A stretch of 64,000 bases of DNA from Escherichia phage EF1-1, in sequence record PQ571289, one strand, 5' to 3'. Positions within the stretch are counted from its first letter, which is position 1. Every line of letters starts with the position of its first letter. Position numbers and translations under genes: made by a program. Under the pieces are notes generated by a model. It had not been told where the DNA came from. It made no database searches and worked only from the letters and a program-made list of their open reading frames with translations. Below are positions 19,889 to 20,482 of the stretch, piece after piece.

Positions 19889-20482
19889 TTACCAAGGAAT
19901 ATCATCTTCTTCCAATCTGGCATCTACTTGAGGTGGACGTGGAACCTTAACCTCTTTCACAAAACGAAGATATGGGAAACGTGTAGCAATTTTAATAACA
20001 TGTTTGGCATCTTCTCTAACATCTTTGTGCAAGAAGCAGATCCCTGTTTCCAAGGTTGTTTCAAAATCTTTAGAATAATAACAGTCCTTCCCATCAAATG
20101 CAGCCTGGCAGATGGACAGATCGAACTCATTTAGAAAGGTTGTCATTACGCTTGGTTCCATAATCATAAGGTTGCAAAGCTGACCATCACGTTCAAACTC
20201 AAAAACGTGTTTAAGACCAGTAACACCTTCATAATTGTCAGAAGCCTCTTTGTTTCCTAGTTTACGAATATTGGTTCCCATTAAAGCAGATGCAATTAAT
20301 CCTTGTATTTGTTCTTCAGTCTGATGTGCAGGAAGGGATGTATAGAAATCAAGATCACGTCCAACAATATCAAGAATACGCCAATCACGAACAGCACCGC
20401 CAGCCAATACAGAATTAGGATCAGCGATCTTTAACACGGTAAGAATTTCTTTGGCAATATTGATTTGTTTTGATTTAGTCAT
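19889..20482 (-). CDS. minimal nucleotidyltransferase (Pol-beta superfamily, CCA-adding/polyA-polymerase head-like) with SSB-like acidic C-terminal tail
   Basis: Motif LAGGAVRDWRILDIVGRDLDFY matches the GGxVRD...DxD nucleotidyltransferase signature; C-terminus EEDDIPW. Confidence 0.5.
   Translation of the reverse strand: MTKSKQINIAKEILTVLKIADPNSVLAGGAVRDWRILDIVGRDLDFYTSLPAHQTEEQIQGLIASALMGTNIRKLGNKEASDNYEGVTGLKHVFEFERDGQLCNLMIMEPSVMTTFLNEFDLSICQAAFDGKDCYYSKDFETTLETGICFLHKDVREDAKHVIKIATRFPYLRFVKEVKVPRPPQVDARLEEDDIPW

Follow-up and report, generated by a model that had tools for sequence, protein, structure and literature searches.

A conserved SSB-tip-like tail on a minimal nucleotidyltransferase of Escherichia phage EF1-1 and its relatives

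[quoted passage not shown] Here we describe a peptide with the same features on the minimal nucleotidyltransferase of Escherichia phage EF1-1, which is encoded in a stretch of 64,000 nucleotides of sequence record PQ571289 (hereafter the window). The gene, identified from the list of open reading frames (ORFs) and by PHROG profile phrog_10174, lies at 19889..20482 on the minus strand, including its TAA stop codon (19889-19891), encodes 197 amino acids and is the orthologue of phAPEC8 gp083. In contrast to a bacterial SSB, the carrier is an enzyme and not a binder of single-stranded DNA (ssDNA) with an oligonucleotide/oligosaccharide-binding (OB) fold, and its terminal residue is Trp instead of Phe, although DDDIPW is still a natural SSB tip. 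The window has 95-98% nucleotide identity with many Phapecoctavirus genomes (phAPEC8-like E. coli myoviruses of the Stephanstirmvirinae), and the protein is 98% identical to nucleotidyltransferases annotated in them. The assignment as a nucleotidyltransferase is therefore not new, GenBank and RefSeq using the labels ‘nucleotidyltransferase’ or ‘putative tRNA nucleotidyl transferase / poly(A) polymerase’. In the literature searched, neither the DDIPW motif nor phage enzymes that mimic the SSB tip nor phAPEC8 gp083 had been described, and the SSB-tip tail appears not to have been reported before.

The closest described nucleotidyltransferases are the class II CCA-adding enzymes and bacterial poly(A) polymerases (PAPs), compared with which the phage protein is half the size and scores under both the Pfam and the NCBIfam thresholds. 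Class II CCA-adding enzymes have no SSB-tip peptide, whereas the phage protein has one, and their nucleotide-templating motif ED..R is not conserved in its family. A stand-alone CCA head domain from Streptococcus pneumoniae (NP_344798.1, PDB 2la3, 191 amino acids) shares only 14% identity with it. To the same class of minimal phage nucleotidyltransferases belong Gp22 of Klebsiella phage fHe-Kpn01 (182 amino acids), which shares the three motifs and is toxic in E. coli (PMC7291057), and proteins of Autographiviridae and other phages with the label ‘Poly A polymerase head domain’. Most surveyed family members are without the tail. Gad2 (Gabija anti-defence 2), a phage nucleotidyltransferase-domain protein of ~400 amino acids (10.1101/2023.05.01.538930), also represents a phage-encoded nucleotidyltransferase fold and is twice as long. 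Membership of the Gad2 family, raised by ‘faint’ precomputed PF26128 tags on some members only, was rejected after hmmscan (E<=1) recovered PF26128 neither in the window protein nor in any of 150 family members, which leaves Gad2 as a loose analogy. PADLOC returned nothing and NCBIfam nothing useful, and tblastn gave no Bacillus phage matches to the nucleotidyltransferase.

The sharing of acidic tails is known from phage T7, in which the tail of the SSB gp2.5 binds the T7 polymerase. The T7 tails are of another sequence type, with a longer run of acidic residues before a final Phe, and are not known to show D-D-I-P-[FW]. The helicase-primase gp4 of T7 also has an acidic tail at its C-terminus, which binds to basic patches of this polymerase (PMC12593628). 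Like the protein described here, gp4 is a non-SSB enzyme with an SSB-like acidic tail; in gp4 the tail serves for docking on a family A polymerase. EF1-1 likewise encodes a family A polymerase and a T7-like primase-helicase, but a nucleotidyltransferase as the carrier has no counterpart in T7.

The conserved tip and the catalytic head that carries it

The nucleotidyltransferase ORF starts with ATG and ends with ...ARLEEDDIPW, followed by TAA. Its C-terminus consists of a linker (residues 178-191, VKVPRPPQVDARLE; 19910..19951, minus strand), modelled as coil at low confidence, and the SSB-tip-like peptide E-D-D-I-P-W-COOH (residues 192-197; 19892..19909, minus strand). Residues 178-197 have no secondary structure in the AlphaFold model, and their mean predicted local distance difference test score (pLDDT) is 66 in the first and 49 in the second block of ten residues. 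Ten orthologues with overall identities of 58-96% were compared, one of them a metagenomic relative that keeps the gene order (L008); on average, pairs of them are 92% identical over the last five residues, 39% over the linker and 62% over the body. The segment that follows the conserved core ranges from 19 to 27 residues through indels, corresponding to linkers of 14-22 residues. A conserved tip on a linker that varies and carries indels is what purifying selection on a short linear motif with a flexible tether would leave behind, and we conclude that the conserved SSB-tip tail is real.

The peptide resembles the end of an SSB-like protein encoded nearby (295 amino acids; 18547..19434, minus strand). 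The terminal PPMDFDDDIPF of the latter is identical to the tip of E. coli SSB, with which 13 of its last 15 residues match (PDB 1eqq). Several orthologues of the nucleotidyltransferase end in DFEDDIPW or EDFQDDIPW and have 6-7 of eight positions in common with DFDDDIPF. As in SSB C-termini, acidic residues and Ile-Pro precede an aromatic residue in the very last position, Trp taking the place of the canonical Phe. Among the 361 ORFs of at least 40 amino acids in the window, DDIP[FW] endings occur in the SSB-like protein and the nucleotidyltransferase only, and the same two proteins are the only ones among the 883 such ORFs of the complete phAPEC8 genome. The original prediction, made from the letters of the DNA, that the EEDDIPW end echoes an SSB tip DFDDDIPF is thereby borne out, as the tip is present in both ORFs and is kept in orthologues down to 58% identity. 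It had also placed the gene beside that of the SSB; the two genes are indeed near each other, but they are not adjacent, a conserved gene for 130 amino acids (19451..19843) lying between them.

Residues 1-177 (19952..20482, minus strand) form a folded catalytic head, which the AlphaFold model and a fold search assign to the class II (CCA-adding/poly(A) polymerase type) Pol-beta fold. The model, calculated with an alignment of 150 sequences, has a pLDDT of 90.8 and a predicted template modelling score (pTM) of 0.84, and was used instead of an 11-sequence model with a pLDDT of 63. Top matches in the fold search were class II CCA-adding enzymes, A-adding enzymes and E. coli PAP heads (PDB 1miv, 3h37, 4wby, 3aql). 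The closest structures are all polynucleotide 3'-end transferases; the aligned targets are 344-517 amino acids long, and the target-normalised TM-score is only 0.22-0.32. An OB fold is excluded for the protein itself, since the model shows a nucleotidyltransferase fold.

The active-site motifs are well preserved among the 150 family members. In motif A, GGAVRD (residues 28-33; 20384..20401, minus strand), G28 and G29 are invariant and A30, R32 and D33 are 91-98% conserved, and in the catalytic DxD, D43-L-D45 (20348..20356, minus strand), both aspartates are invariant. E95 (20198..20200, minus strand), which lies in V-F-E-F with the pattern h[DE]h and is E or D in 100 of the 150 members, is a candidate third metal-binding carboxylate, and by analogy with the Pol-beta superfamily pattern it probably fills this role. 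The protein contains elements typical of this superfamily: A27-G28-G29, D43-L-D45-F, F94-E95-F96 and an alpha-beta-alpha-beta-alpha-beta core. The confident model together with the invariant G28, G29, D43 and D45 supports a nucleotidyltransferase fold with a probably active site. ORF, fold search, invariant motifs and phrog_10174 agree with the earlier reading of a 197-residue nucleotidyltransferase with GGAVRD…D.D, for which a structure prediction had been suggested as a check; model and fold search confirm the fold.

Profile matches were strongest to phage families, namely phrog_10174 ‘nucleotidyltransferase’ (E=5.1e-62, residues 1-128) and phrog_1614 (E=8.4e-11, residues 4-174). The Pfam PolyA_pol head (PF01743) gave 14.2 bits, below its cut-off of 23, and TIGR02692 gave 13.4, far under its threshold of 438.8. 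PolyA_pol was matched weakly by 91 of the 150 family members, with a best E-value of 3.9e-5. A profile of the 150-sequence family had a marginal match in PDB to motif A of CCA-adding enzymes (6ibp/7otr, E=1e-3), and PDB searches with the single protein or an 11-sequence profile returned noise only. Judged by sequence and model, the protein does not qualify as a genuine CCA-adding enzyme or PAP: it has about half the residues and is without body and tail domains. Of motifs B (RRD) and D (EDxxR), by which such enzymes select ribose and template the base, it has no RRD, and its ED..R-like stretch ‘EDAKH’ at residues 157-161 is not conserved across the family, where conservation is limited to H/Y161 and K164. 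The neck is at most partly represented in its 197 residues.

A profile search of 1.84 billion representative proteins yielded 1064 clusters (defined at 50% identity; E<=1e-3), nearly all of them stand-alone proteins of ~175-230 amino acids. The same minimal fold is widespread in phages according to BFVD (phiKMV-like, KP34-like, Zobellviridae and ICP1 ORF223), with matches that include Pseudomonas LKD16, Pectobacterium PP2 and Yersinia fHe-Yen3-01. Distant members are consistently found in a DNA-replication or nucleotide-metabolism setting: those of Zobellviridae adjoin genes for a 5'-3' exonuclease and for a large protein that bears only the label ‘ribonuclease H-like domain protein’, and others lie near a DNA ligase (ICP1) or among genes for ribonucleotide reductase (RNR), thymidine kinase, NT5C and ThyX. 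The homologue ORF223 of Vibrio phage ICP1 (L010, 3956-4375) has 139 amino acids and ends after an S-x-C motif, without the C-terminal third of its metagenomic relatives of ~200 amino acids; it may be truncated or split.

Recurrence of the tip in the family and on other phage proteins

Endings of this type recur among distant members of the nucleotidyltransferase family. Outside the clade of the window protein, [ILVF]P[FWY] closes five of the 186 members surveyed, where composition would predict 0.23, and the frequency of such endings in family members compared with phAPEC8 ORFs gives a Fisher p of 8e-4. The five endings are …SNDFPW, …SNDIPW, …DDGIPF, …EKPIPF and …ESIPY, and further members have acidic-aromatic tips such as EEFEF, SDDDF and WDEEF. 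That tips of this kind were gained more than once suggests that this domain-poor enzyme has repeatedly been given a peptide address. No SSB gene with a matching tip was present in the flanking sequence covered for two of the tail-bearing distant members, P0018 and P0031.

The tip also occurs on other viral proteins. IMG/VR was scanned for GAYGAYATHCCNTGGTAA, that is DDIPW followed by a stop codon (TAA only); the counts given here refer to the matches listed and are lower bounds. Of these matches, 114 of 118 close real ORFs of at least 67 amino acids, which is not expected of random matches. The 114 ORFs fall into 27 unrelated clusters and none belongs to the nucleotidyltransferase family (0/114). 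Clusters with a PHROG assignment are mostly SSBs of several architectures, comprising the classical OB-fold phrog_44, phrog_18154, 9002, 1192 and 743, and the gp2.5-like phrog_112. Because so many types of SSB carry DDIPW, DDDIPW is a natural variant of the SSB tip. The non-SSB proteins listed include a DNA helicase of 601 amino acids (phrog_16; L049, 5045-6850), a deoxynucleoside monophosphate kinase (phrog_139; L051, 5708-6325), an AAA ATPase (phrog_249; L124, 4178-5371) and several uncharacterised families. Tips also come in pairs: a Pam3-gp34-like protein (…DDIPW) adjoins an AEP primase (PF22548 and PriCT_1; …EEEIPF), the loci with paired tips being L041, L043, L044, L102 and L116, and a classical SSB (…DDDIPW) is located ~0.9 kb from a PolB-exo-like 3'-5' exonuclease (PF10108; …LDEIPF).

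At the level of sequence, the tail of the nucleotidyltransferase is in line with a wider sharing of tips by replication enzymes of phages. We tentatively suggest that SSB-tip tagging could be a general, so far undescribed strategy of phage replication modules, in which unrelated enzymes (the nucleotidyltransferase and, elsewhere, helicase, AEP primase, 3'-5' exonuclease, deoxynucleoside monophosphate kinase and AAA ATPase) would have taken up the tip independently and would plug into SSB docking sites, so that replication and nucleotide-supply enzymes would gather at a hub addressed by peptides; the hub of the phAPEC8 group might then be wired to the host SSB interactome through its exact E. 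coli tip. Should the tip prove to be a genuine docking tag, the tail-sharing principle of T7 gp4 and gp2.5 would extend to many phage lineages, and it would be easier to understand how the host SSB interactome, a proposed antibacterial target, is exploited or bypassed by phages.

Possible functions of the tail

We propose, with a probability of about 50%, that the protein is an active minimal class II-type nucleotidyltransferase with a docking peptide of the SSB-tip type, which tethers it to sites where SSB tips bind. The original prediction also suggested that the tail could recruit the enzyme to SSB-interaction hubs or compete for host SSB partners; both roles are putative. Its catalytic head, with apparently intact metal-binding carboxylates (D43, D45 and probably E95), would act without the domains that give CCA enzymes their grip on tRNA. 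The disordered linker of ~14 residues would carry the tip, with its acidic run, Ile-Pro and terminal aromatic residue with free carboxylate, to the kind of pocket by which SSB tips are recognised, in proteins of the phage replisome, in SSB partners of the host, or in both. Such docking would place the enzyme where ssDNA is handled, so that it would be targeted in trans and not via a nucleic-acid-binding domain. Nucleotides would be transferred to an acceptor at this site, most likely the 3'-OH of RNA or DNA, because this is the substrate type of the nearest structural relatives. Since it carries the exact E. coli tip, the SSB-like protein evidently addresses the host SSB interactome. Minimal head-only nucleotidyltransferases are common in phages, with >1000 clusters at 50% identity and at least one relative that is toxic to E. 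coli, and the conserved SSB-tip tail offers a first concrete clue to the place where one of them acts.

Several observations speak against the docking model. The terminal residue is Trp in every nucleotidyltransferase orthologue and Phe is kept in the SSB, and with this difference fixed the tips may be read by different pockets. In sister clades of the subfamily that have the cassette and a DDDIPF SSB, the nucleotidyltransferase ends in other tails (05F01 ...ELDSFEKF, P0016 ...DLDSFDKF and PD06 ...LDSFNNEEFKI), and therefore an SSB-type tip is not required for the core role of the enzyme. Most of the family of >1000 clusters is likewise without such a tail. As for catalysis, the E95 position is occupied by N or Q in 29 of 150 members (about 20%). 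Finally, what points to an SSB in the neighbouring gene is its tip, its annotation by others and its position, and a profile of five SSB-like orthologues matched PDB entries through the tip only.

Among the alternatives, we consider it unlikely that the tip serves as a decoy or as targeting for protein modification, occupying the SSB-tip pockets of host nucleases, helicases or restart and defence proteins and either blocking these proteins or presenting them to the head for covalent nucleotidylylation. Enzymes with a Pol-beta fold that AMPylate proteins do exist, namely GlnE, MntA and DrrA, and the SSB-like protein of the phage has an exact copy of the host tip, so that host readers of the SSB tip are evidently relevant to this phage. 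The toxicity to E. coli of the structurally related fHe-Kpn01 Gp22 (182 amino acids; PMC7291057) would also be in line with a host target. However, neither PADLOC nor Pfam Gad2 gave an anti-defence family match, and the closest structures, all of them polynucleotide 3'-end transferases, favour a nucleic acid as the acceptor.

The function in the database label, that of a tRNA nucleotidyltransferase or poly(A) polymerase acting in the repair or maturation of tRNA 3' ends, with an incidental tail, would agree with the structural matches to CCA- and A-adding enzymes and E. coli PAP, with the profile match to CCA motif A and with the 11 tRNA genes of phAPEC8. We nevertheless regard it as quite unlikely. 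The 177 folded residues, against ~370-520 residues in the matched enzymes, leave out the tRNA-holding body and tail domains, PolyA_pol and TIGR02692 score below their thresholds, and the residues at 157-161 are unconserved. The gene is embedded in a replication block, ~40 kb from the tRNA cluster in phAPEC8, and neither Rfam in the region nor ARAGORN in the window found tRNA or other RNA genes. Moreover, the selective conservation of the tip argues for a functional tip.

An equally slim chance is given to an autoinhibitory tail, the acidic tip of which would fold back as a pseudo-substrate on the enzyme's own basic cleft for nucleic acid and nucleoside triphosphates until ssDNA or a partner releases it. 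In E. coli SSB, T7 gp2.5 and T4 gp32, acidic tails fold in this manner onto the DNA-binding surfaces of the same proteins, the tip here has acidic residues beside it, and the linker is long enough to reach the active site. On the other hand, there are only 3-4 acidic residues, and the conserved D-D-I-P-W includes Ile-Pro and a terminal aromatic residue, hallmarks of docking in a pocket and not of charge mimicry; AlphaFold does not dock the tail on the head with any confidence. That the tip is a neutral remnant without function, for instance of recombination with the 3' end of the nearby SSB gene, is barely plausible: the genes are ~450 bp apart and both tips contain the 11-nt string GATGATATTCC, but the codons flanking this string differ and Trp and Phe are each fixed per gene, which makes recent gene conversion unlikely, the tip is 92% identical against 39% for a linker with indels, and similar tips in distant family members are 20-fold above expectation.

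Neighbouring genes and minor observations

The nucleotidyltransferase gene is part of a tightly packed minus-strand block with the order PolA, HNH endonuclease, three small ORFs, nucleotidyltransferase, 130-residue ORF and SSB-like ORF. The nucleotidyltransferase gene begins before the small ORF upstream of it has ended, start and stop overlapping by 8 nt, and we infer that the nucleotidyltransferase, PolA and the SSB-like gene are co-transcribed. A bidirectional terminator-like hairpin (18492..18515, either strand) with a stem of 10 pairs and a T-run on both strands was found in a terminator scan and ends the block after the SSB-like gene. Phapecoctavirus, Justusliebigvirus and Klebsiella phage 05F01-like genomes share the order PolA, nucleotidyltransferase, 130-residue protein and SSB-like protein, as does the metagenomic contig L008. 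The conserved gene for 130 amino acids (19451..19843, minus strand; phrog_16560, E=4e-76), a possible partner, is restricted to Stephanstirmvirinae (133 phage records) and is located between the nucleotidyltransferase and the SSB-like gene in four of four such loci examined.

The SSB-like ORF has the C-terminus ...EEPPMDFDDDIPF, also given as ...PSNQEEPPMDFDDDIPF. Its matches to SSB models (phrog_18154, phrog_7364 and NF006533; PDB 1eqq/7f2n) are confined to residues ~254-295. Several GenBank records annotate the protein as an SSB, and its main PHROG (4477) is of ‘unknown function’. Beyond the last ~15-40 residues, its body has no similarity to a solved SSB or to a Pfam OB-fold family, and the protein may represent a novel ssDNA-binding fold that captured the host tip. 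In Pseudomonas phage PsgM04F (L002, 5064-6017) and Escherichia phage PD06 (L003, 5026-5973), the SSB-like ORF runs 15 amino acids past DDDIPF. This extension, APIGLQYGRNFLHCF, is conserved at the protein level despite synonymous changes and would bury the free carboxylate of the tip. Because the differences are synonymous, the extension is apparently translated; the start of a group I intron was considered and rejected, as Rfam found none and the differences are synonymous.

The block is headed by a family A DNA polymerase (21688..25020, minus strand; Pfam DNA_pol_A) with an intein-like insertion of 245 amino acids. This insertion is precise (residues 584-827; CVPMDAQ...ITITGN, then C), with both flanks 100% identical to phAPEC8 PolA. 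It looks like an intein from its sequence; Pfam (E<=0.01) detected no intein domain in it. The HNH homing-endonuclease-like gene between PolA and the small ORFs (21071-21661, minus strand; phrog_953, E=2e-74) is missing from most close relatives, the alignments of which span only ~82% of the stretch, and for this reason it is probably a mobile insertion.

Other acidic or aromatic C-termini were seen in passing. A 101-residue ORF in the window (51694-51999, minus strand), for which there was no Pfam match, ends in ...KTEEEF, an acidic run with a terminal Phe. In phAPEC8, the small subunit of RNR (L016, 41244-42329) ends in ...DDEELDF, a classic R2 tail, and a 63-residue ORF beside the anaerobic RNR genes (L018, 26794-26985) ends in ...ELQRLPF. 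Genomes near-identical or close to those of E. coli Stephanstirmvirinae have been deposited as Acinetobacter, Pseudomonas and Campylobacter phages (OP562383.1, OR584014.1 and MG065689.1); these records may carry mistaken host labels or stem from contaminant isolates.

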